Assembly: GCA_031283185.1 (NCBI GenBank)
Contig: JAITCH010000010.1
Span: forward strand, 63,237-127,236
Origin: Rickettsiales bacterium
Lineage (GTDB): Bacteria; Pseudomonadota; Alphaproteobacteria; Rs-D84
Reading direction: 5' to 3'
DNA: 64,000 nt
Of the stretch, positions 3,419-60,044 are shown one piece after another (position 1 is the stretch's first letter; every line of letters begins with the position of its first letter). The notes beneath the pieces were generated by a model that was given only the letters and a program-made list of their open reading frames with translations, searched no databases and was not told the DNA's origin. A program made the position numbers and the translations under genes.

Positions 3419-4087
3419 TTATTTTATTTTCTGCTGCCCGACCATTGCCATTAGATTGCGTCTGTCGTCATTATGTAATTCGGGTAAATCCGCACAGGTA
3501 TCGCGGATCAAAGTTTCGAAATATAATCTGTAAGTATCCGAATGTAATTTTTTAATTTTGTTCTTATTGAAATTCAATTCTCCGTTCCGCCGCCGCCGCG
3601 GATAATTTTCCAAATCTTCAATATCTTCCTGTGTTGATTCAATCTGTTCGTCTAGGCAGGCGTTGTGCATACGAATTTCGTAATCGTATGCATTCTTTGC
3701 GACTATTCCATCTGCGCCGACACGGACGATTTCATAGCAGACATCGCGTAAAATTACCGGCTTGATCTTAATTTGGATGCCGATGATCCCGGCTTTGCCC
3801 ATTTTAAGGATTGCATTTTCGAATTTTATATCTTCATCCATTATGTGGGATAGACATTTGGCGTCCTTTGTCCCGTTGGCGCAAAGCCCAAGGGCATTTT
3901 GGAAGATGTCGTTGTTTGATGGATAGTTTAGAAAGATATGTTGTGTTTCCGGGTCAAGTGATTTTAATCCGGCGCGTTCGTCAACGACGCTTTTTGACAT
4001 AGAGTAAATTTCTTGGATAATTTTTACAATTCGGACGGCTTTTAATTGGGTTCGGTTTTCCCAATAGTTTTTTGGCGGTTTGTTCAT
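3419..4087 (-). CDS. hypothetical protein (222 aa)
   Basis: Long ORF divergent from the small paralog pair. No domain is recognised. Confidence 0.45.
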   Translation of the reverse strand: MNKPPKNYWENRTQLKAVRIVKIIQEIYSMSKSVVDERAGLKSLDPETQHIFLNYPSNNDIFQNALGLCANGTKDAKCLSHIMDEDIKFENAILKMGKAGIIGIQIKIKPVILRDVCYEIVRVGADGIVAKNAYDYEIRMHNACLDEQIESTQEDIEDLENYPRRRRNGELNFNKNKIKKLHSDTYRLYFETLIRDTCADLPELHNDDRRNLMAMVGQQKIK

Positions 4088-5036: not shown

Positions 5037-5122
5037 GGGGGTGTTGACCCGGACATAAGGTTTTCTGTGGATTTTTATCCTTTGACAAATAATAAAAGTG
5101 GGTGGAAAAGTTATAAAAAGTT

Positions 5123-5249
5123 CTCCTCCATTGGAGGAGTCCCCCACGAAGTGGGGGGAGGTGGTTTAGCCACATTAAGGTAAGTAGTGCGGGGATATTT
5201 GGTTAAACCACCCCGCGCCTACGGCGCACCCCTCCACCGGAGGGGAATT
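5123..5249. repeat. composite structured repeat copy A: hairpin, hairpin, inverted-repeat core GGTGGTTTAGCCAC...GTGGTTAAACCACC, hairpin, hairpin
   Basis: CTCCTCCATTGGAGGAG, TCCCCCACGAAGTGGGGGGA, the core, CGCGCCTACGGCGCA and CCCCTCCACCGGAGGGG. The architecture is the same as the copy at 35317-35454. Confidence 0.8.
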
Positions 5250-10461: not shown

Positions 10462-10504
10462 ATTCCCCTCCAAGGTGGAGGGGTGCCCGAAGGGCGGGGT
10501 GGTT
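10462..10504. repeat. terminal half-copy of the composite repeat (AATTCCCCTCCAAGGTGGAGGGGTG + GC hairpin + GGGGTGGTT)
   Basis: Matches the ends of the copies at 5123-5249 and 35317-35454. Confidence 0.75.
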
Positions 10505-17871: not shown

Positions 17872-17901
17872 AAAAAATCCCCTCTAATAGAGGGGATTTT
17901 T
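17872..17901 (+). terminator. intrinsic terminator CCCCTCTAATAGAGGGG followed by a T-run
   Basis: Hairpin flanked by an A-run and a T-run, directly after rpsU. Confidence 0.7.
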
Positions 17902-17959
17902 CACTATTTGCACATCTGAATAAAATCTGATATAATTAATCCAACCAAAGGATAAGAAA

Positions 17960-24210: not shown

Positions 24211-24239
24211 AAATCCCCTCCAACGGAGGGGATTTTTTT
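24211..24239 (+). terminator. intrinsic terminator TCCCCTCCAACGGAGGGGA followed by T7
   Basis: Hairpin followed by a T-run directly after the 22840..24204 stop. Confidence 0.75.
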
Positions 24240-24265
24240 AGGAATAAAAATTCTTCATTTTACCC

Positions 24266-35301: not shown

Positions 35302-35316
35302 TTTTATCATCCATAA

Positions 35317-35454
35317 GTTCCCCTTCATTGAAGGGGTGTCGCCGCAGGCGACGGGGTAGTTTAGCCACATTTTGGCAAGCAGTGCGGTTATATGTGGTTA
35401 AACCACCCCGGCACTTCGTGCCACCCCTCCAACGGAGGGGAATTTTATTTTTAT
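35317..35454. repeat. composite structured repeat copy B (same architecture as 5123-5249, with compensatory stem changes)
   Basis: CCCCTTCATTGAAGGGG, GTCGCCGCAGGCGAC, the core GGGTAGTTTAGCCAC...GTGGTTAAACCACC, GGCACTTCGTGCC and CCCCTCCAACGGAGGGG. Confidence 0.8.
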
Positions 35455-37865: not shown

Positions 37866-37889
37866 TTTATAGCGGGTAAAATTCGACCA

Positions 37890-37917
37890 GTTCCCCTTCA
37901 AAAGAGGGGAACTTTTT
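37890..37917 (+). terminator. intrinsic terminator GTTCCCCTTCAAAAGAGGGGAAC followed by T5
   Basis: Hairpin plus a T-run after the stop at 37865. Confidence 0.7.
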
Positions 37918-37985
37918 CGCCTTTGACAAATCCGTGTCGGTGCGTCATAATCCCTCTGTCTAGCGAAACCGAAAGAAGGAAAATT

Positions 37986-43421: not shown

Positions 43422-43471
43422 AATTCCCCTCCAAGGTGGAGGGGTGGTGGCGTAGCCGCCGGGGTGGTTGG
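43422..43471. repeat. terminal half-copy of the composite repeat
   Basis: AATTCCCCTCCAAGGTGGAGGGGTG-GTGGCGTAGCCGCC-GGGGTGGTTGG. Confidence 0.75.
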
Positions 43472-45465: not shown

Positions 45466-45822
45466 TTAAAACTCCATCAACCTCACTTGCCCGGGGTTGT
45501 ATTGGGACGGCGGAGTGCTGAAAAGCCAATACATTCCAACGAGGAATACTGCACTGACGCCGATGGCAATTACGGCATTATCTTTAATCCAACTGCTTTT
45601 TTGTGATTTGGGTTTATATGCTGTTGTTTGAGGGCAGTAGTAAATGTCCCCATTTTTTTCGGAGCATTGAACATAATTGGTTAGTGGAGTATTACATTGA
45701 ACTTTGTCTGGCTGTTGACCCGGCGCGGTGGGAACCATGCAGTAATTAACGGCATTTGCAGGGGGGGGCGTGAACACCGATATAAGTCCGAAAACCGATA
45801 AAATTGCTAATAATTTCTTCAT
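45466..45822 (-). CDS. small exported Cys-containing protein with a C-terminal TM segment (118 aa)
   Basis: Signal peptide MKKLLAILSVFGLISVFT. It contains the G8/C8 tract at 45762-45769, which encodes PPP. Confidence 0.45.
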   Translation of the reverse strand: MKKLLAILSVFGLISVFTPPPANAVNYCMVPTAPGQQPDKVQCNTPLTNYVQCSEKNGDIYYCPQTTAYKPKSQKSSWIKDNAVIAIGVSAVFLVGMYWLFSTPPSQYNPGQVRLMEF

Positions 45823-45887
45823 AAATGAACTTTCTCATAAATGTCGGTATAGAGTCAATACAAAAATTGCCCGCCACCCCTTTCCTC

Positions 45888-45915
45888 TTGACAAAACGCA
45901 AATACTCGCTACAAT
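45888..45915 (+). promoter_or_regulatory. promoter TTGACA-N16-TACAAT, 7 nt before the ATG (leaderless)
   Basis: Hexamers with the upstream TTTCCTC motif shared by the promoters at 46590 and 48248. Confidence 0.5.
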
Positions 45916-45922
45916 CCCGCTT

Positions 45923-46573
45923 ATGATAAAAAAGACTCCGACTATTTTAATGCGATTTAACCGCTGGCGCGATATAGACGAATGCCTAACCGACACGCAT
46001 TTCTTTGACCCGAAATATCCGTCCATTGGAAAGGATATTTTGGTGGTTGGTGGTGGCGACAGCACATATAGCACATTCGGATATTTTGATTTTAATTGGA
46101 CGAATATAGACCTGAACATCCCGGACGGATATTTCCAAATACCTTGGGTCAAAAGTATCAGGGCTGATTTCATAACGCATTTGGAATTTAATCCTACCGG
46201 GTATGACGAGATTTTGTCCTGGTATGCTTTGCCGTTGTATTCGCCAACTTTTGCATCTGCGTGGTATTTTTATCTGAAAGCGATGAGTCTTTTGCGTCCC
46301 GGCGGACGGCTGCGTGTGGGCGGTGTGCGCCCCGAAGATTATGCGGAATCCAGGAATTCATACCTAAGGAATTCGGATGCGCCGGAAAAGATTGTTCGTG
46401 CGCGGCAAGGGGCGTTGGCGACCCTTGCGAATTGGGGTGCAGAGGTCAAGGAATATAAATATGCGGAAATTATCACGAAACCCCGGTCGGCATCGCTCTT
46501 TAACCACCAGGTTGACGGCGAACTTGGTCGTATGCGGCTTCATATCGCGGATTATAAATTGCAGGTCAAATAG
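45923..46573 (+). CDS. class I SAM-dependent methyltransferase-like protein
   Basis: Rossmann GxGxG motif ILVVGGGDS, and LRPGGRL. Confidence 0.45.
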   Translation: MIKKTPTILMRFNRWRDIDECLTDTHFFDPKYPSIGKDILVVGGGDSTYSTFGYFDFNWTNIDLNIPDGYFQIPWVKSIRADFITHLEFNPTGYDEILSWYALPLYSPTFASAWYFYLKAMSLLRPGGRLRVGGVRPEDYAESRNSYLRNSDAPEKIVRARQGALATLANWGAEVKEYKYAEIITKPRSASLFNHQVDGELGRMRLHIADYKLQVK

Positions 46574-46589
46574 CCCAACAAATTTCCAC

Positions 46590-46617
46590 TTGACAAAATA
46601 AATGTCTGTTCTATAAT
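46590..46617 (+). promoter_or_regulatory. promoter TTGACA-N16-TATAAT
   Basis: Near-consensus hexamers. An AAGGAG RBS and an ATG follow. Confidence 0.5.
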
Positions 46618-46651
46618 ACGCCTAACAATCGCAACCAAGGAGCGACCAAAA

Positions 46652-47173
46652 ATGATGATACAAGAAATAACAAGATATATATTAGTCCCTAGCCAAATTC
46701 TGGTCATCGGTCCTGACGGACAGAAAACCTTGGACGGCAATAGTCAATATTATCATCTGCCGGAATACCAGTTTGATAAATACGATAATGATCTTATACA
46801 AAACAAGTTCAACGCGATTGTCAAATTGGGGAAAGAATATAAGATAAATATCGGTCAGTTCGCGCTCTTCCCGGTGAAATATGAAACAAAAGGGTGTGAC
46901 CGATGCGTGGGCTTGGATATTCCAGAGGCATATGACTTTTCCAAGGCGAAAGAATGGTGTCGCGTGATGTGCGTGCCGTTAGAGGTCAGTGGTAAAGAAC
47001 TAAAAGCACTAAAATCCGGTGCCTTGTTTGGCGGCTGCCACAGCTCGATTGACCGCTTTGCGAAGGACGCCGCCGTTGATTTTGTGAACGCTGTTGCGGA
47101 CACGGATGAGACAGATTTCCGAAAAGCATTGCGCCTCGCTCTCGCGTTTGTGTCAAAAGCGAGATCGAAATAA
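46652..47173 (+). CDS. hypothetical protein (173 aa)
   Basis: ORF with a strong promoter and an AAGGAG RBS. Confidence 0.5.
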   Translation: MMIQEITRYILVPSQILVIGPDGQKTLDGNSQYYHLPEYQFDKYDNDLIQNKFNAIVKLGKEYKINIGQFALFPVKYETKGCDRCVGLDIPEAYDFSKAKEWCRVMCVPLEVSGKELKALKSGALFGGCHSSIDRFAKDAAVDFVNAVADTDETDFRKALRLALAFVSKARSK

Positions 47174-47217
47174 CGAGATAACAACCCTACGAAACCTAAA
47201 TAATAAGGAATGTAAAA

Positions 47218-47402
47218 TGATTTATAAGATAATATATGAATTTGGCTCGGTTGGGAGTCAGGAGCTTGACTTCGATGATGATCATTCAACTATGAGTATT
47301 GTCGGGCAGCAAATGCCATTTGATCCCGGGGATTTCCAGGACGCGGCGCGCTACTTCGGTAGAGATATTATGTCAAGCTTGATACAACAACGAATGAGAT
47401 AA
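47218..47402 (+). CDS. small acidic hypothetical protein (61 aa)
   Basis: An AAGGAATG RBS precedes the ATG. Confidence 0.4.
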
Positions 47403-47490
47403 CGGAAATCGGTTTGGGTGTGCGGGGGCTTTTGTGCCCCCGCCCTTTTTTTATTTGACATTCAATTGATTCCATTACAAGGTATGGCGC

Positions 47491-47544
47491 AAATTCTCCT
47501 CCTGTGGAGGAGTCCGGGCGAAGCCCGGGAGGTGGGTCTACCAT
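47491..47544. repeat. 5'-half copy of the composite repeat (subfamily with GGTGGGTCTACC core), directly upstream of the DUF559 gene
   Basis: AAATTCTCCTCCTGTGGAGGAGTCCGGGCGAAGCCCGGGAGGTGGGTCTACCAT, identical over 56 bp to 48002-48057. Confidence 0.8.
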
Positions 47545-47564
47545 TAATCCTTGGGCAACAAACA

Positions 47565-47978
47565 ATGTCAATAGTTATTCAATACAATCCAAATCTTCGC
47601 AACAATGCAAAAGCATTACGCAAGGCGGGTATATTATCCGAAATCCTTCTATGGGATCAGATAAAGCGAGGTCAAATAAATGGTCTTGATTTTGACCGAC
47701 AACGAATCATGGGAAATTATATAGTGGATTTCTGCTGCCCAGATACAGGTGTAGTTATAGAGATTGACGGACATTCGCATGACTTTAAGGAACTGCACGA
47801 TACCAAGCGTGAGGAATATCTAAAAAGCCTGGGTCTTGAAACTATACATATCGCGGATATTGATGTTAAGCAAAGTTTAGATGGTGTTGTTGGAATGTTA
47901 AAGGCGCATCCATTTTTGCAAAATCCAATTAAAGATAGAAAATGTGTTTTTATACATAATTCTCCTCTTGTGAATTAG
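47565..47978 (+). CDS. DUF559-family endonuclease-like protein (Vsr/restriction-endonuclease-like fold)
   Basis: ...GNYIVDFCCPDTGVVIEIDGHSHD...EYLKSLGLETIH, the typical DUF559 pattern. Confidence 0.65.
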   Translation: MSIVIQYNPNLRNNAKALRKAGILSEILLWDQIKRGQINGLDFDRQRIMGNYIVDFCCPDTGVVIEIDGHSHDFKELHDTKREEYLKSLGLETIHIADIDVKQSLDGVVGMLKAHPFLQNPIKDRKCVFIHNSPLVN

Positions 47979-48001
47979 GATTTGGTAGTGTGGCACTGAC
48001 T

Positions 48002-48128
48002 AAATTCTCCTCCTGTGGAGGAGTCCGGGCGAAGCCCGGGAGGTGGGTCTACCATATCTATGAAACGCAAGCCTAACCCGGAGACCCACCCCGTCCGCTT
48101 CGCGTCCACCCCTCCACCGGAGGGGAAT
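48002..48128. repeat. full composite repeat copy (GGTGGGTCT...AGACCCACC core subfamily), immediately downstream of the DUF559 gene
   Basis: Its 5' half is identical to 47491-47544. The 3' half ends CCCCTCCACCGGAGGGGAATT, as in the other copies. Confidence 0.8.
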
Positions 48129-48247
48129 TGGGCCCCGGAACGAGTTGGATTTCAAGTGGCAACGCAGAAATCTTAAGAGTTCCAGGCGAACATCCCTCAA
48201 CATCCACCCGCTCCATAACCCCCTCGCGCGCCACAATAACTTTCCGC

Positions 48248-48275
48248 TTGACAAAACTAATTAATGGGGTATAAT
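48248..48275 (+). promoter_or_regulatory. promoter TTGACA-N16-TATAAT
   Basis: Near-consensus hexamers. The -10 overlaps the ATG proposed in the ORF track, so the start is moved to 48307. Confidence 0.5.
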
Positions 48276-48306
48276 GACCCGGTCAATAACCCAAAAGGGG
48301 GAGAAA

Positions 48307-48729
48307 ATGGCAACTTTTACAGAAACAGAATTGATTCTGGAATGGGAATATAACGAAGAATATCAGTATGCATTTGAACGAATTCGGGAATACAACGCGT
48401 CCGAGCAGGGCGGCGAAAAACTTAAGGCTGATGAACGGCACGATTTGTTGGAACAAATCGCAAAAATGCAGGAAATTGACCTTCGTCGCTATAAAATGGC
48501 TATGATCGGCAAGTTTTATGTGGAATTAAAGGGGGCGTTGGAAGAAGTTATAGATGCCCGCCTTGCAATTCGTGGCGCAAGCGCGATTTTGGGGGCTGCA
48601 ACCAAGCCGGATGATGTCGCGCGAGAGGTTGTATCGCGCCGCGCTGTTGATATTACCCGCAAATTGGATAAAAACGAGCGGGAATTGGCGAAAAAAATAG
48701 CAGAATACTTGTCAGGCCTTGCGCGGTAA
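48307..48729 (+). CDS. hypothetical protein (140 aa)
   Basis: An AGGGGGAG RBS lies upstream of the ATG at 48307. Confidence 0.5.
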   Translation: MATFTETELILEWEYNEEYQYAFERIREYNASEQGGEKLKADERHDLLEQIAKMQEIDLRRYKMAMIGKFYVELKGALEEVIDARLAIRGASAILGAATKPDDVAREVVSRRAVDITRKLDKNERELAKKIAEYLSGLAR

Positions 48730-48736
48730 TAGGGGC

Positions 48737-48765
48737 TTGACGATTTAACCCGGGCAATATATAAT
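48737..48765 (+). promoter_or_regulatory. promoter TTGACG-N17-TATAAT
   Basis: Near-consensus hexamers. Confidence 0.5.
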
Positions 48766-48790
48766 GCCCCGGCAAAACAAAGGAAACGAA

Positions 48791-49225
48791 GTGATATATT
48801 TAGAAGAACATTATAGCAACGCGACTAAGTGGATTGCGTTTTATCAGTACATTACCTGGGTCAAAAAGTTAAATTTGACTGCCGAAGAATTGGCGGATTA
48901 TGACAATCTGACTAACATTGTGGATAATTGTCCGGCCGCAACTCGGCAAGAGGCTTTTCGTGAGCACGAAGACGCGTTTCATGGCTATTCGGACGAGGAT
49001 TTAAAGCGCGAGCGGTTTTTGCGGCAGAAATTTATTGGGATTTCTGAGACATTGAAGACGATGCCGGAAACTCAGCGTAGATTGGCAAACTCAAGGTCGC
49101 CTGAATCGCAGGCTCAGGCTGCGGCGATGATCCGGGAGATGGCGGAACTTGAAAAAACGCGCGATGGCTTGTTGAAAGAGTTAAATTCTTTGTGCGTCGC
49201 CACCCACGCCGCCCAGACCTGGTAA
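48791..49225 (+). CDS. hypothetical protein (start probably the GTG at 48791; the ORF-track ATG at 48764 overlaps the -10)
   Basis: An AAAGGAAA RBS lies 6 nt upstream of the GTG. Confidence 0.4.
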   Translation: MIYLEEHYSNATKWIAFYQYITWVKKLNLTAEELADYDNLTNIVDNCPAATRQEAFREHEDAFHGYSDEDLKRERFLRQKFIGISETLKTMPETQRRLANSRSPESQAQAAAMIREMAELEKTRDGLLKELNSLCVATHAAQTW

Positions 49226-56185: not shown

Positions 56186-56785
56186 ATGGCAATAAAGAAA
56201 AAGAAATCATCAGCAAAAAAGTCCCCATCAAAGGTCGTGCACTCAAAAGTCCCCTTCGCTGGCGAAGGGGTGGCGGGCTTTGCCCGCCGGGGTAGTGGTA
56301 ATAATCTGTCAGCCGAATCGACCGGGTTTGTCCGTTTCGGGGACGCGCTGAACAACTTCTTCCGCGGATATTTTGATTGTTATGGCACGGCGACCCGCGC
56401 AGAATTTTGGTGGCCGGTTTTGGCTGTGGTTTTATTGGTGGGTTTGCCGTGGGCATTGCCAGGATTTATTTTGGCGATTATGGTTCCGTTTGTAATGGTT
56501 ACGATTCGCCGTATGCACGACATTGGGAAATCTGGCTGGCATTATTACGGAATTGAAATTGGCTTTTTCGCGCTGTATCAAGTATTGACTGCGATTGCGA
56601 CTAGCCTTGCGGATAAAGAGATGCGCCTGATAGGCGATCCGGAAGAATTGCACGAAGTTATTGTTCATACGGGGCTTAGCGGCTTTATTGATGCGTTTGC
56701 GCTTGTTATGATGTTGGTAGTCAGCGCATATCTGATTTCATTATTGATCCGCCCATCTCTTCTAACCGGCAATAAGTATCGCTAA
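56186..56785 (+). CDS. DUF805-family inner membrane protein
   Basis: RRMHDIGKSGWHYY motif and TM helices. Confidence 0.6.
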   Translation: MAIKKKKSSAKKSPSKVVHSKVPFAGEGVAGFARRGSGNNLSAESTGFVRFGDALNNFFRGYFDCYGTATRAEFWWPVLAVVLLVGLPWALPGFILAIMVPFVMVTIRRMHDIGKSGWHYYGIEIGFFALYQVLTAIATSLADKEMRLIGDPEELHEVIVHTGLSGFIDAFALVMMLVVSAYLISLLIRPSLLTGNKYR

Positions 56786-56841: not shown

Positions 56842-58392
56842 TTACGCTCCGAACTTACCCCTATTAATCGATCTGTATGTCAATGCCTCGGCAATATCTT
56901 CCATAATGATATTTTCTGCGCCACGCAAATCTGCAATCGTCCGTGCGATTCGTAATACGCGATTGTATCCGCGCGCTGACAGCGACATTTTTTCCGCCGC
57001 TAAATTTATAAAGTCGCGCAACTCTTGCGTCAATGCGGTGGCGGTTTCCAACTCGCGCCCGTCCAGCCGGGCATTCAGAATTTCGCGCCCGAAAAGTTTC
57101 ACGCTTCGCGCGATCTGCCGTTCCCGCGCGGCGCAGGTGCGTGCCCGAATCGCTGCGGATGTTTCCTCGGGCGCGCTTTCTGTCCGCCCCAGTTCCCAAG
57201 GGTTCACCGAATCAACTTCAACATGCAAATCGATTCGATCCATTAGTGGTCCTGAAATTTTATTTTGATACGCCTCGGCACAGCGCGGTGCCTTGGAGCA
57301 CGATAATTTTGCATTCCCCAGGTGTCCGCACGGGCAGGGATTCATTGCCGCAATAAGTTGAAATTGCGCGGGGTATGTTGCATTGCGTTTCGCGCGCGAA
57401 ATGGTAATGCCGCCGGTTTCCATTGGCTGCCGTAAAATCTCTAATGCGCCGCGCTGAAATTCGGGCAGTTCGTCCAAAAATAACACGCCATTGTGCGCCA
57501 AAGAAATCTCGCCGGGCAGCGCGTTGGAACCGCCGCCGGACAGCGCGATTTGACTTGCGGTGTGGTGGACGGCGCGGAACGGACGGGCATTCATCAACCC
57601 GCCGCCTTTGAGGAGCCCCGCGACAGAATAGATGACCGAAGTATCTAAAACCTCGCGTTGCGTCATCGGCGGCAATATAGAGCCGAGGCGCGATGCGAGC
57701 ATTGATTTACCCGCGCCCGGAGGGCCGACCATTAACATTGCGTGCCCGCCTGCCGCGGCGATTTCCAATGCCCGTTTTGCTGCCGCTTGCCCCTTTACTT
57801 CGGACATATCTGCCGAATCAGTTCCCCTCCGGTGGAGGGGTGCCGCCAAAGGCGGCGGGGTGGTCTCGGGCGCAGGCATTGGTTCATTATGTCTAAACCA
57901 ATTCACCAAATCCAAAACATTTCCGGCGGCCAGGATATTTTTATTTCCCGCCCACTTGGCCTCGTCCATATTGTCAACGGGGCAAATGATGCCCAACCCT
58001 TGGTCGTTTGCCCAAATACTGGCGGGCAGGACGCCATTTGCCCGCAGGATTGTGCCGTCAAGGCCGACTTCGCCCATAATGACATATTTTGCCAGTTCTT
58101 CTTCTGGCAATACGCCCATCGCGGCGAGAACGGCGCATAGAATCGGCAGGTCAAAGTGCGCACCGGTCTTGGTCAGGTCGGCGGGCGCAAGGTTCACTAC
58201 GACTTTCTTTGCGGGTATGGACAGGTTCATTGCCTTGAAGGCGGATTCAATGCGGGTGGATGCTTCTTTGACGGCGCGGTCGGCGAGCCCAACGATGAAG
58301 AATTTAACCATTCCGTGGGATATTTGCGCCTGTGCTTCGACGCGGGTTATTTCCAGTCCATTAAAAACGATAGTATTTATATTCGCCGTCAT
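56842..58392 (-). CDS. comM: YifB/ComM-family Mg-chelatase-like AAA+ ATPase, carrying an in-frame half-repeat insertion in the inter-domain linker
   Basis: Lon-like N-terminal domain, Walker A GPPGAGKS, and a C-terminal ChlI-like domain. The repeat at 57821-57864 encodes PETTPPPLAAPLHRRG. Confidence 0.9.
   Translation of the reverse strand: MTANINTIVFNGLEITRVEAQAQISHGMVKFFIVGLADRAVKEASTRIESAFKAMNLSIPAKKVVVNLAPADLTKTGAHFDLPILCAVLAAMGVLPEEELAKYVIMGEVGLDGTILRANGVLPASIWANDQGLGIICPVDNMDEAKWAGNKNILAAGNVLDLVNWFRHNEPMPAPETTPPPLAAPLHRRGTDSADMSEVKGQAAAKRALEIAAAGGHAMLMVGPPGAGKSMLASRLGSILPPMTQREVLDTSVIYSVAGLLKGGGLMNARPFRAVHHTASQIALSGGGSNALPGEISLAHNGVLFLDELPEFQRGALEILRQPMETGGITISRAKRNATYPAQFQLIAAMNPCPCGHLGNAKLSCSKAPRCAEAYQNKISGPLMDRIDLHVEVDSVNPWELGRTESAPEETSAAIRARTCAARERQIARSVKLFGREILNARLDGRELETATALTQELRDFINLAAEKMSLSARGYNRVLRIARTIADLRGAENIIMEDIAEALTYRSINRGKFGA
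57821..57864. repeat. terminal half-copy of the composite repeat, inserted in-frame within comM
   Basis: GTTCCCCTCCGGTGGAGGGGTG-CCGCCAAAGGCGGC-GGGGTGGTCT on the plus strand. It is read through on the minus strand. Confidence 0.8.
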
Positions 58393-58423
58393 TTCTCTTT
58401 CCTTTTATACCCTGCCCCCTTGA

Positions 58424-60014: not shown

Positions 60015-60044
60015 AATCCCCCTCCATTGGAGGGGAATTTTCTT
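60015..60044 (+). terminator. intrinsic terminator CCCCCTCCATTGGAGGGG followed by a T-rich tract
   Basis: Hairpin directly after the stop. Confidence 0.65.

Follow-up and report, generated by a model that had tools for sequence, protein, structure and literature searches.

Classical IS/MITE pairs (IS630/Tc1-type MITEs, Correia) comprise full-length and internally deleted forms with common terminal inverted repeats. The hairpin-flanked DUF559 gene described here resembles such pairs in that its terminal inverted repeats are common to long and short forms and that many copies exist, some of them intragenic. In contrast to these pairs, a DDE, tyrosine or serine transposase is lacking, hairpins kept by covariation form the ends themselves and no regular target-site duplication has been established. 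In REPINs, REP doublets are mobilised by a REP-associated tyrosine transposase (PMC3337134, PMC3479197). As in the REPIN-RAYT system, one small nuclease or transposase gene lies between inverted short hairpin repeats, gene-less palindromic doublets of ~100 nt occur genome-wide, copies are found near gene ends and in clusters, and recognition of a folded DNA hairpin by the enzyme is likely. However, the enzyme here is a predicted Vsr-like PD-(D/E)xK protein (DUF559) and not a Y1/HUH transposase, and the ends consist of two hairpins and a GGGGTGG box with no GTAG or CGTC tag. The gene here appears to move with ends that are near-identical across phyla, whereas each RAYT/REP pair is specific to its lineage, with a RAYT gene that is essentially immobile, and loaded copies here are translated within host proteins.

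Compared by description, the short copies are also similar to the Rickettsia palindromic elements (RPEs; PMC10969869), being palindromes of ~100–150 nt in a Rickettsiales genome which are inserted in frame in coding genes and translated. The RPEs are confined to Rickettsia and have no known enzyme, whereas the present family includes a nuclease-encoding full-length form and is found in many phyla. The EDxHD/Vsr-like homing endonuclease I-Bth0305I (PMC3239194) has the same catalytic fold and is likewise a selfish gene present or absent at a fixed site of a host gene, and free-standing members of its group exist. However, I-Bth0305I sits in a group I intron or intein, where splicing restores the host product, and carries N-terminal NUMOD/HTH modules, whereas the element here has no intron or intein, is translated through, encodes the catalytic domain only, and possesses structured inverted ends and gene-less derivatives. 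Caulobacter VsrA (PMC12907096), a solitary gene with a DUF559 domain to which the window protein bears a predicted likeness, can cause DNA breaks and has been interpreted as repairing T:G mismatches and as linked to a cytosine methyltransferase; in contrast to our locus, a mobile-element context is unreported for VsrA. In the literature covered, which took in a minority of the subscription journals, an association of DUF559, COG2852 or Vsr-like proteins with palindromic, hairpin or mobile elements is undescribed.

Our analysis suggests, with a probability of roughly 0.6, that the region 47491–48129 is one copy of a hairpin-ended mobile element in its 'loaded' form, with the DUF559 nuclease as the sole gene. 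The 3' side of this copy would be joined to a gene-less copy of the same element, or would have its 3' end in common with it.

Layout of the DUF559 locus

The window, i.e. the whole 64-kb stretch of DNA analysed, holds a single DUF559 gene, and a tblastn search finds no second copy within it. A repeat search places this gene between two copies of a direct repeat of 54 nt and 100% identity (47491–47544 and 48002–48055, 511 nt from start to start), which has exactly these two window copies at up to 3 mismatches (shuffles expect 0.00). The initial annotation had described the pair as 56 bp long with the second copy ending at 48057; the pair is real, with a length of 54 nt and an end at 48055. Its further observations were confirmed: an intact DUF559 ORF (47565–47978) is bracketed by both copies, the second copy runs on into a complete palindromic element of 128 nt ending CCCCTCCACCGGAGGGGAATT, and a third, degenerate repeat start is present as AATTCTCCTCTTGTG at 47958–47972, identical to the repeat start at 14 of 15 positions. 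The degenerate start lies 45 nt from the next copy, a spacing within the range of the tandem end arrays of other genomes. The arms of the palindromic element (48003–48050 and 48082–48129) are 75% complementary and 31 nt apart, and its 3' half is the right end of both the gene-less element and the whole 639-nt unit (47491–48129). On the 3' side of hairpin 2, the first copy of the repeat carries a GAGGTGGG box followed by 8 nt (TCTACCAT) which are common to copy B. The features are collected in Table 1. A short TGGTAGT-TGG motif is held by the 26-nt spacer within the degenerate remnant (47958..48001) and is seen, by eye, also after the stop codon in locus L084.

Table 1. Coordinates of the DUF559 locus and of other repeat copies in the window
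Feature	Position	Strand	Remarks
Complete gene-less element	5119..5249	+	fold z = -6.2; hairpin 1, hairpin 2, central stem, hairpin 2', hairpin 1'
Single 5'-type half, intergenic	10462..10502	+	hairpin 1, GCCC-GAA-GGGC, GGGGTGG
Complete gene-less element	35316..35444	+	fold z = -6.7; hairpin 1 with compensated variant CCCCTTC/GAAGGGG
Single 5'-type half	43422..43467	+	begins right at the end of an ORF's stop codon
5' end ('5' half') of putative loaded element	47491..47544	+	exact repeat; ssDNA fold with both hairpins, z = -3.9
Hairpin 1 of 5' half	47496-47502 with 47506-47512		CTCCTCC TGT GGAGGAG
Hairpin 2 of 5' half	47514-47519 with 47523-47528		CCGGGC GAA GCCCGG
DUF559 (Vsr-like PD-(D/E)xK) nuclease ORF, predicted	47565..47978	+	137 aa
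Degenerate 5'-half remnant	47958..48001	+	first 15 nt encode the ORF's last codons HNSPLVN*
5' half, copy B	48002..48055	+	100% identical to 47491-47544; left arm of gene-less palindrome
Central loop of gene-less element	48056..48081	+	ATCTATGAAACGCAAGCCTAACCCGG
3' half	48082..48129	+	AGACCCACCCC, weak hairpin 2' (CGC TTC GCG), hairpin 1', then AATT
Hairpin 1' of 3' half	48109-48115 with 48119-48125		CCCCTCC ACC GGAGGGG
Single divergent 5'-type half	56248..56298	+	CCCCTTCGC..GCGAAGGGG, GCGGGC-TTT-GCCCGC, GGGGTAGTGG
Single half in frame within comM/yifB-like Mg-chelatase-family gene	57820..57863	+	gene 56842-58404, minus strand
Single hairpin 1	60019..60039	+	CCCCTCC ATT GGAGGGG AATT; immediately 3' of stop codon

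The ORF belongs to Pfam family PF04480 (E = 4.6e-25, 88 bits against a cut-off of 20.6), and phmmer relates its product to PDB 3HRL (E = 4e-15). Foldseek matches of the AF2 model (pLDDT 90.7) are 3HRL (E = 8e-6), 3R3P (I-Bth0305I; TM 0.69 on target), 1VSR and PvuRts1I, and in the family alignment residues D55, E66, D68, H72, D79 and R82 are invariant in 21 homologues, window protein included. The predicted structure of the window protein is a Vsr-like nuclease fold. Going upstream, the reading frame runs through the 5' half and stays free of stops as far as 47418; a promoter scan predicts no sigma-70-like promoter for the gene, and an obvious Shine-Dalgarno sequence is likewise lacking. Domain scans of six ORFs between 45770 and 49225 reveal no transposase. 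The only ORF of the element is DUF559; transposases of the recognised classes (DDE, Y, S and HUH) are absent, and no recombinase adjoins the DUF559 unit. To our knowledge, no strand-transfer activity is known for a 137-aa Vsr-like nuclease.

Gene-less copies, single ends and tandem ends of the repeat amount to about 12 in the window, and the 19-mer of the hairpin start has 8 window matches at up to 3 mismatches compared with 0.02 expected. Translation of the half located in the comM-like gene gives TTPPPLAAPLHRRGT, which lies in the linker that precedes the AAA+ domain of the protein. Single hairpins similar to the one at 60019 are present at 17879, 24215 and 37889, each with a T run behind it, and are probably terminators. 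The sole Rfam match between 47300 and 48400 is a sub-threshold L20_leader on the upstream terminator, with none on the repeat and no intron family. Look-ups of the exact protein sequences and a search with the exact 25-mer of the window copy's hairpin 2 gave no match elsewhere, and a metagenome scan with the neighbouring ORF (46652–47173) gave no relative.

The source of the window is a MAG contig, and the repeat is exactly 54 nt long, i.e. k-1 for a k=55 assembly; the local order is given as assembled. Assemblers working at k=55 cannot pair the entries with the exits of such a repeat. It could be argued from the exact repeat length and the MAG source that the order of the locus (5' half, DUF559, 5' half, loop, 3' half) is an artefact of metagenome assembly, misjoined through the repeat, and that the true genome has a plain gene-less element at this place, the DUF559 unit lying at another site or forming a tandem array or a circle. 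However, the same arrangement is found in independent assemblies, in other phyla and with other repeat lengths, and we consider a misjoin very improbable. Even if true, it would alter the local order only and the link between gene and repeat would stand.

Recurrence across phyla and structure of the ends

The link of a nuclease gene to MITE-like repeats, proposed in the initial annotation, is borne out beyond the window. The architecture recurs round homologous genes in many phyla, clearly at odds with a flanking repeat peculiar to one copy. The recurring order is a 5' double hairpin, the DUF559 ORF and an inverted 3' double hairpin, and it has been read directly in full in L001–L003, L084 and L085. 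Among the 67 homologue loci with enough flank, hairpin CCCCTCC-N3-GGAGGGG is present just upstream of the gene (100–300 nt before the DFDRQ motif) in 59 and its inverted copy just downstream (200–420 nt) in 52, with both sides occupied in 46; the background of hairpin 1 is 0.126 per kb. At least 589 relatives are found among 185,579 species genomes, complete genomes with members of the clade including Ca. Haliotispira prima (CP123443) and Balneatrix alpica, and the DUF559 family comprises 15,102 clusters of 50% identity at E <= 1e-3. Phages gave no match as carriers, plasmids hold only distant DUF559 genes (<43% identity), and in IMG/VR the end motif occurs in only 12 stretches on 11 contigs, one of which has the gene. 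Synteny with the closest homologue loci was considered and rejected; L002 also has ftsH nearby, but ftsH (52% identity) and DUF559 are all that it has in common with the window, and their order differs.

In these loci translation of the ORF, which lacks a stop codon of its own, continues through the 3' end of the element, and this translated end is the common C-terminal tail HPAL.GTPPEEGN. Gene-less copies greatly outnumber loaded ones and retain the asymmetric pair of end types of the loaded copy of the same genome. Judging from their sequence, the central loops of gene-less copies seem to preserve the beginning of the ORF, an ATG with a few N-terminal codons, in L003 as well as in the window, where the loop at 48056..48081 may be a relic of the start of a deleted DUF559 ORF.

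The DUF559 gene might instead encode an ordinary solitary Vsr-like mismatch-repair endonuclease, like Caulobacter VsrA, near which REP-like, terminator or regulatory hairpins of the host accumulate. The functional tie of the Caulobacter DUF559 protein to cytosine methylation and DNA damage (PMC12907096) is consistent with such a role, single hairpin-1 copies with T runs in the window look terminator-like, and hairpins would also stabilise mRNA. However, the same inverted ends lie at fixed distances round the gene in many phyla, whereas near-identity across phyla would not be expected of REP families, which are genome-specific; the ORF without its own stop runs through the end, and the unit is present or absent inside conserved host ORFs. 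The mismatch-repair reading is already strongly disfavoured and retains very little probability.

The second 5' half of the window locus has parallels as well. A 5'-type end lies directly downstream of the gene in 15 of 59 copies, as in the window, and the plain form (5' half, ORF, 3' half) with the second 5' half absent is seen in 44 of 59 loci. Where both are present, the upstream and downstream 5' ends are usually near-identical (100% in L045, 98% in L003, identical by eye in L066), and L008 has units of the order '3' half, ~35 nt, 5' half' both before and behind DUF559. It is conceivable that a circle of 5' half, DUF559 and spacer (511 nt in all in the window) integrates by single crossover into the 5' half of a resident element and leaves the insert between two identical 5' halves, with excision as the reverse, through host RecA or a host site-specific recombinase and perhaps stimulated by a DUF559 nick. 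The exact 54-nt direct repeat round the window gene fits such a circle, as do the identical or near-identical 5' halves flanking DUF559 in L045, L003, L008 and L066 and the L008 units, which resemble a circle junction. The absence of a second 5' half from the plain loci and the lack of an encoded recombinase speak against a circle, which we regard as improbable; it is in any case a variant of the mobile-element reading and not an independent alternative.

Each end is composed of AATT, hairpin 1, hairpin 2 and the GGGGTGG box, and the two ends are mutually inverted. Hairpin 1 has an almost invariant 7-bp stem (CCCCTCC/GGAGGGG) with a 3-nt loop; its variants are CCCCTCC (window), CCCCTTCGC (Enterousia), CCCCTCCCC (Sphingomonas) and CTCTCCC (Neisseria). 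Hairpin 2 has a variable, covarying stem, usually with a C-GNA-G triloop. The 186 distinct ends yield 68 different hairpin-2 stems, with GNA loops in 121 and a stem of at least 4 bp in 168, compared with 50 of 186 shuffled ends. In an alignment of 48 ends, three of four hairpin-2 pairs change on both sides and 99.5% of cells are paired, and the covariation observed was reached by none of 500 shuffles. As judged from the aligned sequences, the end hairpins are kept by compensatory change and their structure is under selection. It is hairpin 1 and the GGGGTGG box that are conserved across phyla and not TCTACCAT, which leaves the nicking site GGTGGGTCTACCAT suggested in the initial annotation unsupported.

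Copies in frame within host genes

Of 80 loci, about 30 carry the whole unit as an in-frame insert of a host gene, the hosts including HsdR, HsdS, Type ISP, N6_N4 MTase, QueA, LipA, Mur ligase, iPGM, CysRS and fumarase. Among 49 copies embedded in host genes, the catalytic residues E, D, H and D show little or no variation. All embedded copies found are in the sense orientation, the only one which the search could have shown. When the element of the HsdR gene of L031 is removed in silico, natural orthologues of 1089 aa are found which are 94% identical and without DUF559. The HsdR site is filled in 16 and empty in 100 sequences (the 116 of the best 120 matches in which both flanking motifs were located), and the QueA site is filled in 12 and empty in 92 (the 104 of 120 matches that could be scored); QueA orthologues of 88–92% identity lack the element. 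In the DNA of L031 HsdR, the element is inserted at TTTAAT^ACNCAA, beside a remnant of an older 3' end. AAT is found at both ends of the insertion in the single clean filled/empty pair, and no regular target-site duplication is seen in the flanks of 30 complete elements; in the QueA filled/empty DNA pair the insertion is not clean. An intein or intron was rejected as an explanation of the in-frame copies, as Pfam shows no Hint domain and the frame is kept throughout. Some embedded copies (QueA lineage) look old and vertically inherited, and for these domestication fits as well as parasitism. The single end translated in the comM-like gene of the window, together with the many in-frame cases in relatives, amounts to RPE-like behaviour.

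These sites also bear on the possibility that DUF559 is a free-standing homing endonuclease which parasitises an independently mobile palindromic repeat, the repeats being moved by some other enzyme. Such an endonuclease would cut repeats that lack the gene, or a site within their loop, and recombinational repair would copy the gene in with the ends serving as homology arms. The fold in common with the proven homing endonuclease I-Bth0305I (PMC3239194), the patchy occupancy of the HsdR and QueA sites among close orthologues, the constant position of the ORF at the centre of the palindrome and the great excess of gene-less over loaded copies are all consistent with homing. However, in host genes and at intergenic sites it is the whole unit, ends included, that constitutes the insertion, and thus gene and ends move together. 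Beside the repeats no further enzyme was seen that might mobilise them, and the new copy in L031 lies beside the old end remnant and has not replaced it, unlike simple allelic gene conversion. The ATG and codon fragments that the loops of L003 and the window appear to keep, as from a deletion, also point, if weakly, away from homing. We regard homing into an independent repeat as unlikely.

The linkage across phyla and the presence or absence of the unit in host genes suggest, therefore, that the DUF559 gene and the repeat form one mobile unit. The initial annotation had offered two alternatives, a non-autonomous derivative and a gene homing into repeats. The evidence leans to the former, and the two could also hold together; on the sequences compared here, the repeat is most likely the gene-less derivative of a DUF559-encoding element.

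Possible mode of mobility and its implications

We infer that the nuclease drives the mobility of the element. The DUF559 protein would recognise the end hairpins in extruded or single-stranded form and nick or cut there, and host replication or repair would then copy the element into the break. As breaks would arise at existing ends, tandem ends and head-to-tail arrays would result, including the order 5' half, DUF559, 5' half of the window. The palindromes of 130 nt would be internal-deletion derivatives mobilised in trans, and recombination between the two 54-nt copies of the window would remove the gene, so that a clean gene-less element remains.

It is possible, and we put it forward tentatively, that the DUF559 proteins of this clade, perhaps along with a large part of the family, are mobilising nucleases of an unrecognised cross-phylum class of hairpin-ended elements. 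Such elements would be transposase-free, would spread by nuclease-triggered copying at folded ends, would shed REPIN/RPE-like gene-less palindromes and would survive in essential and restriction-modification genes by being translated through. If true, inserts of the form 'hairpin linker, nuclease domain, hairpin linker' would be a splicing-free counterpart of inteins, and the known kinds of bacterial mobile DNA would gain a nuclease-only element. For DUF559, a very large family on whose function there is no agreement, a structured DNA end as conserved partner would provide a testable role and a defined substrate. The element is also a possible 'parent' of orphan palindromic repeats, of one class at least, among them the RPE-like repeats that lie in frame in a Rickettsiales genome. 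It would account for hundreds of odd fusion annotations of the type 'HsdR / very-short-patch-repair endonuclease' and for the recurrent database peptide tails NSPPLEGW..GVV and HPAL.GTPPEEGN. The embedded copies indicate that insertions of ~450 nt can persist in housekeeping enzymes without splicing.

The unit differs from a programmed invertible segment in that no recombinase is adjacent and that the embedded copies found are all in sense, antisense copies being undetectable by the search. These elements may also mislead searches that rely on repeats to detect programmed inversions in restriction-modification genes. DUF559 is among the genes flagged for IRs (PMC9881135), and the ends of these elements are probably the origin of that flag.

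The DUF559 locus and its repeat family

The initial annotation had placed the DUF559 gene between two identical 5' halves of a repeat. Repeat search and direct reading confirm an exact repeat on both sides of the ORF, where AAATTCTCCTCCTGTGGAGGAGTCCGGGCGAAGCCCGGGAGGTGGGTCTACCAT is present twice with zero mismatches. The two copies are identical as claimed, but the repeat is 54 nt long and not 56, the second copy ending at 48055. At up to 3 mismatches the window holds exactly these two copies, and none is expected by chance. As also proposed, the second copy runs on into a full palindromic element without a gene (gene-less, as opposed to loaded copies), whose right arm is 75% complementary to the left arm and terminates in CCCCTCCACCGGAGGGGAATT, and the last codons of the ORF lie in a third, degenerate repeat start, AATTCTCCTCTTGTG, which matches at 14 of 15 positions, 45 nt ahead of the next copy. 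The gene is present in a single copy within the window (tblastn). The spacer following its stop codon shares a short TGGTAGT-TGG motif with the corresponding spacer of L084, one of its two closest relatives, a weak hint in the sequence of a possible common origin. Local order has to be read with care, since 54 nt is exactly k-1 for an assembly with k=55.

Features of the DUF559 locus and repeat copies of the window, compiled for the repeat family from direct reading and BLAST
Feature	Window position	Description
First 54-nt copy	47491-47544
DUF559 ORF	47565-47978	137 codons, between both 54-nt copies; PF04480, E = 4.6e-25
Degenerate repeat start	47958-47972	overlaps last ORF codons
Post-stop spacer	47976-48001
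Second 54-nt copy	48002-48055
Gene-less element at the locus	48002-48129	128 nt; left arm is the second 54-nt copy
Its right arm	48082-48129
Complete gene-less elements (n=3)	5119-5249, 35316-35444, 48002-48129
Single 5'-type ends (n=4)	starting 10462, 43422, 56248, 57820
Single hairpin 1 copies	17879-17905, 24215-24240, 37889-37913, 60019-60039	CCCCTCC-N3-GGAGGGG, directly after stop codons
comM/yifB-like gene	56842-58404	minus strand; Mg-chelatase family

The hairpin start of the repeat has 8 matches in the window at up to 3 mismatches, against 0.02 expected. Folded as single-stranded DNA, the complete elements that start at 5119 and at 35316 give five helices, namely hairpin 1, hairpin 2, a central stem and the inverted copies 2' and 1' (z of -6.2 and -6.7, respectively), while the element at 48002 forms one long stem, arm on arm (z about -4). 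Hairpin 2 varies between copies in the window with its pairing always kept (CCGGGC-GAA-GCCCGG, CCCCCAC-GAA-GTGGGGG, GTCGCC-GCA-GGCGAC, GCCGCC-AAA-GGCGGC). Two of the single hairpin 1 copies are followed by T runs and probably serve as intrinsic terminators; the single post-stop hairpins are either co-opted element ends or ordinary terminators that resemble one. The end at 57820-57863 lies inside the comM/yifB-like gene and contributes the in-frame peptide TTPPPLAAPLHRRGT to the linker ahead of the AAA+ domain, behaviour like that of Rickettsia palindromic elements within the window.

The nearest relative of the DUF559 protein is only 67% identical, and the next relatives come from Fibromonadaceae, gammaproteobacteria, Chloroflexi, Chlorobi, Planctomycetes and others. 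The protein matches the solved DUF559 protein NGO0050 (3HRL, E = 4e-15), and its structure model, which is confident (pLDDT 90.7), superposes on 3HRL, the I-Bth0305I catalytic domain (3R3P), PvuRts1I/AbaSI and Vsr. All family-invariant residues are kept, including D55, E66, D68, H72, D79 and R82. A search for sigma-70-like promoters from the upstream terminator (47422-47443) to the start codon gave none; the consensus promoter at 48248-48275 is that of the gene after the locus.

Linkage of gene and hairpins across phyla

Many homologues carry C-terminal tails (...HPAFGTPPRRGII, ...HPALTGTPPEEGN) that resemble the translated 3' half of the repeat, and DNA confirmed this. Five loci were read in DNA: L001 (a Fibromonadaceae MAG), L002 (an ENA contig), L003 (Balneatrix alpica), and L084 and L085 from the two closest relatives. 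In each, AATTCCCCTCC-N3-GGAGGGG, then a second hairpin, then GGGGTGG stand ahead of the gene, and the inverse series of CCACCCC, another hairpin and CCCCTCC-N3-GGAGGGGAATT stands behind it. Scanning one genome per species gave at least 589 relatives, from which 80 loci were kept, 67 with enough flank. Hairpin 1 occurs 100-300 nt upstream of the DFDRQ motif in 59 of these 67, 200-420 nt downstream in 52 and on both sides in 46, against a background of 0.126 per kb elsewhere in the same loci. Complete units measure 436-615 nt. In most of them the ORF lacks a stop codon, and reading continues through the 3' end into the flank. Gene and ends are thus inherited together.

Distant DUF559 genes (about 35% identity) also lie between inverted hairpins, of other sequence. 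In a Sphingomonas copy that lies between sufB and sufC these hairpins are CCCCTCCCC-TTCA-GGGGAGGGG...GGGGGTGGG, and the N. gonorrhoeae NGO0050 homologue (crystallised as 3HRL) has its own inverted repeats, of the CTCTCCC-TGT-GGGAGAG type, on its flanks. The outer ATTCCC...GGGAAT of the element end resembles the Neisseria dRS3 repeat (ATTCCC-N8-GGGAAT), a lead only. In the plasmid locus of Sphingomonas parapaucimobilis (L092), the distant DUF559 gene has inverted hairpin arms of 33 nt and splits sufB from sufC, normally one operon.

Among 186 distinct ends, hairpin 1 is nearly invariant, while hairpin 2 takes 68 different stems, is paired over at least 4 bp in 168 (50 of 186 when shuffled) and has mostly GNA loops (GAA 75, GCA 22, GTA 15, GGA 9). 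In 48 aligned 40-nt ends, 3 of the 4 hairpin-2 pairs vary on both sides, yet 99.5% of the cells are paired; compensated cells number 25 against 4.2 in shuffles, and the covariation is equalled by no shuffle and no slid register. The ends are therefore under structural selection. Stems at the two ends of one element are often unrelated, therefore what is kept is the fold, and the ends need not be complementary to each other. Mini-hairpins of DNA with a C-GNA-G triloop are unusually stable, and the GNA loops lie on the strand running 5' to 3' inward from each end. This suggests that the ends may be recognised as extruded or single-stranded DNA, as REP/RAYT and IS200/IS605 ends are.

In many loci the element also exists as derivatives: palindromes that lack the gene, lone ends, and ends in tandem at a period of about 40-51 nt, for example six 3' ends in L011 and three 5' ends in L047. 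B. alpica has one loaded and four gene-less copies in a head-to-tail row, all with the same asymmetry, a left end of the 46-nt type and a right end of the 40-nt type. Its gene-less loops (TTGTTTGAATGCTAACCTAA) resemble the start of the ORF region (TCTTTATGCGAAAAACACAAACCTACAA), and the gene-less loop of the window contains ATGAAACGCAAGCCTAACCC; these likenesses hint weakly that gene-less copies may arise by internal deletion of a loaded one.

A 5'-type end directly downstream of the gene is present in 15 of the 59 copies with enough flank, and a 3'-type end just ahead of the upstream 5' end in 18. Where both exist, the upstream and downstream 5' ends of a locus are usually near-identical (100% over 50 nt in L045, 98% in L003, identical by eye in L066; less alike in L048 and L051, at 89% and 87%). 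The order of 5' half, DUF559 and 5' half is therefore a regular outcome in unrelated lineages and not a peculiarity of this contig, as it would be if it were an assembly artefact. Most simply, the locus can be read as a loaded element that abuts a gene-less copy with its 3' part or has that part in common with it. This arrangement might come from insertion or copying at an existing end, or, if the element were a circular cassette, from single-crossover integration of the circular form. If the two 54-nt copies recombined, the gene would be lost and a clean gene-less element would remain. In the Fibromonadaceae locus (L001/L004), a 29-nt direct repeat (2918-2945 and 3507-3535 of that locus) brackets the element plus 62 nt. 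It consists of 14 nt of flank and the first 15 nt of the element, AAATATTAA[T/C]GATAAATTCCCCTCTGGGGA, and could be a long insertion duplication or an integration scar.

Copies embedded in host genes

In about 30 of the 80 loci a much longer ORF runs in frame through the whole unit of end, nuclease and end, with intact host domains (Pfam) on both sides. Hosts are type I HsdR (same site in 11 loci), Type ISP/Eco57I-like enzymes (two or more different sites), HsdS, an N6_N4 methyltransferase, QueA and a radical-SAM protein, lipoyl-synthase-like by sequence. Of the 147 best hits that could be retrieved from an exhaustive search over 1.84 billion cluster representatives, 49 are proteins of at least 280 aa with an internal DUF559, adding Mur ligase, iPGM, class-V aminotransferase, fumarase, CysRS and aldolase as hosts. 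Catalytic residues are invariant or nearly so in the embedded copies, so these translated insertions conserve the active site.

The element is polymorphic for presence at such sites, a pattern to be set against the alternative of a housekeeping Vsr-like enzyme. Searching with the L031 HsdR from which the unit had been removed in silico, we found natural 1089-aa orthologues without DUF559 at 94% identity. The site is filled in 16 and empty in 100 of the 116 hits, among the best 120, in which both flanking motifs were located. In DNA, the sequence is TTTAAT|ACGCAA for the empty allele and TTTAAT|TCCCC...GGGGAATG|ACTCAA for the filled one. Only a few bases separate the new copy from the degenerate remains of an older 3' end, which the 'empty' allele has too. 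At the QueA site, 12 are filled and 92 empty (104 of 120 hits scorable; empty orthologues 88-92% identical); variant elements occupy this site as well, but the DNA junction is not clean. Both patterns show gain or loss at fixed sites and repeat visits where an end already sits.

Three QueA proteins of other lineages (P0258, P0315, P0344) have different inserts at the same linker site, in which hairpins encode other peptides (NPALAAGSQSASNCDARCGGGL...) and a divergent ORF matches DUF559; this linker is a hotspot or else just tolerates insertions. Extra single ends are translated in frame elsewhere in host proteins of the unit, as EFPSDGGVPEGRGG in the L031 HsdR N-terminus (about 2069) and as FPSSGGVSAGRGG inside the L013 Type ISP enzyme.

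Proposed mechanism, related systems and neighbourhood

In the mechanism that we propose, binding of the DUF559 protein to the folded ends would lead to a nick or cut at that place, and the break would be repaired by copying in another element. Such copying would account for tandem ends, arrays and insertion beside old ends, and gene-less copies might be mobilised in trans. Alternatively, the nuclease might home as a parasite into an independent repeat. The element contains no strand-transfer enzyme, and no firm target duplication was found. REPIN-RAYT is the closest system in function; however, the DUF559 element differs in enzyme class, gene mobility and the cross-phylum identity of its ends. 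Rickettsia palindromic elements, for which no enzyme is known, match its in-frame behaviour, and Vsr-like homing endonucleases share the fold, whereas the DUF559 element has no intron or intein. In the literature that could be searched, we found no paper linking DUF559 or Vsr-like proteins to such hairpin repeats. The chance is substantial that this element, a nuclease gene accompanied by gene-less palindromic derivatives, represents a distinct class. In one survey, 'DUF559 domain-containing protein' appears alongside restriction-modification genes in the set enriched for flanking inverted repeats (PMC9881135), which the element would explain.

Around the element (45770-49225), in a neighbourhood adjoining ftsH, lie orphan ORFs of 267, 173, 61, about 142 and 153 aa, none with a Pfam match; the 173-aa ORF has no relative in a JGI metagenome scan. 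An Rfam L20_leader hit at 47369-47457 (25.8 bits against a gathering score of 58.7, E = 0.014) overlaps the terminator hairpin of the upstream gene and is almost certainly due to chance. A 42-nt direct repeat of 74% identity (46576-46617 and 48234-48275; also about 5075-5115 and 37915-37950) spans two consensus promoters (TTTCC[AG]CTTGACAAAA...TATAAT) ahead of the orphan ORFs flanking the locus, and CTTTGACAAA-type -35 regions recur beside other repeat copies.
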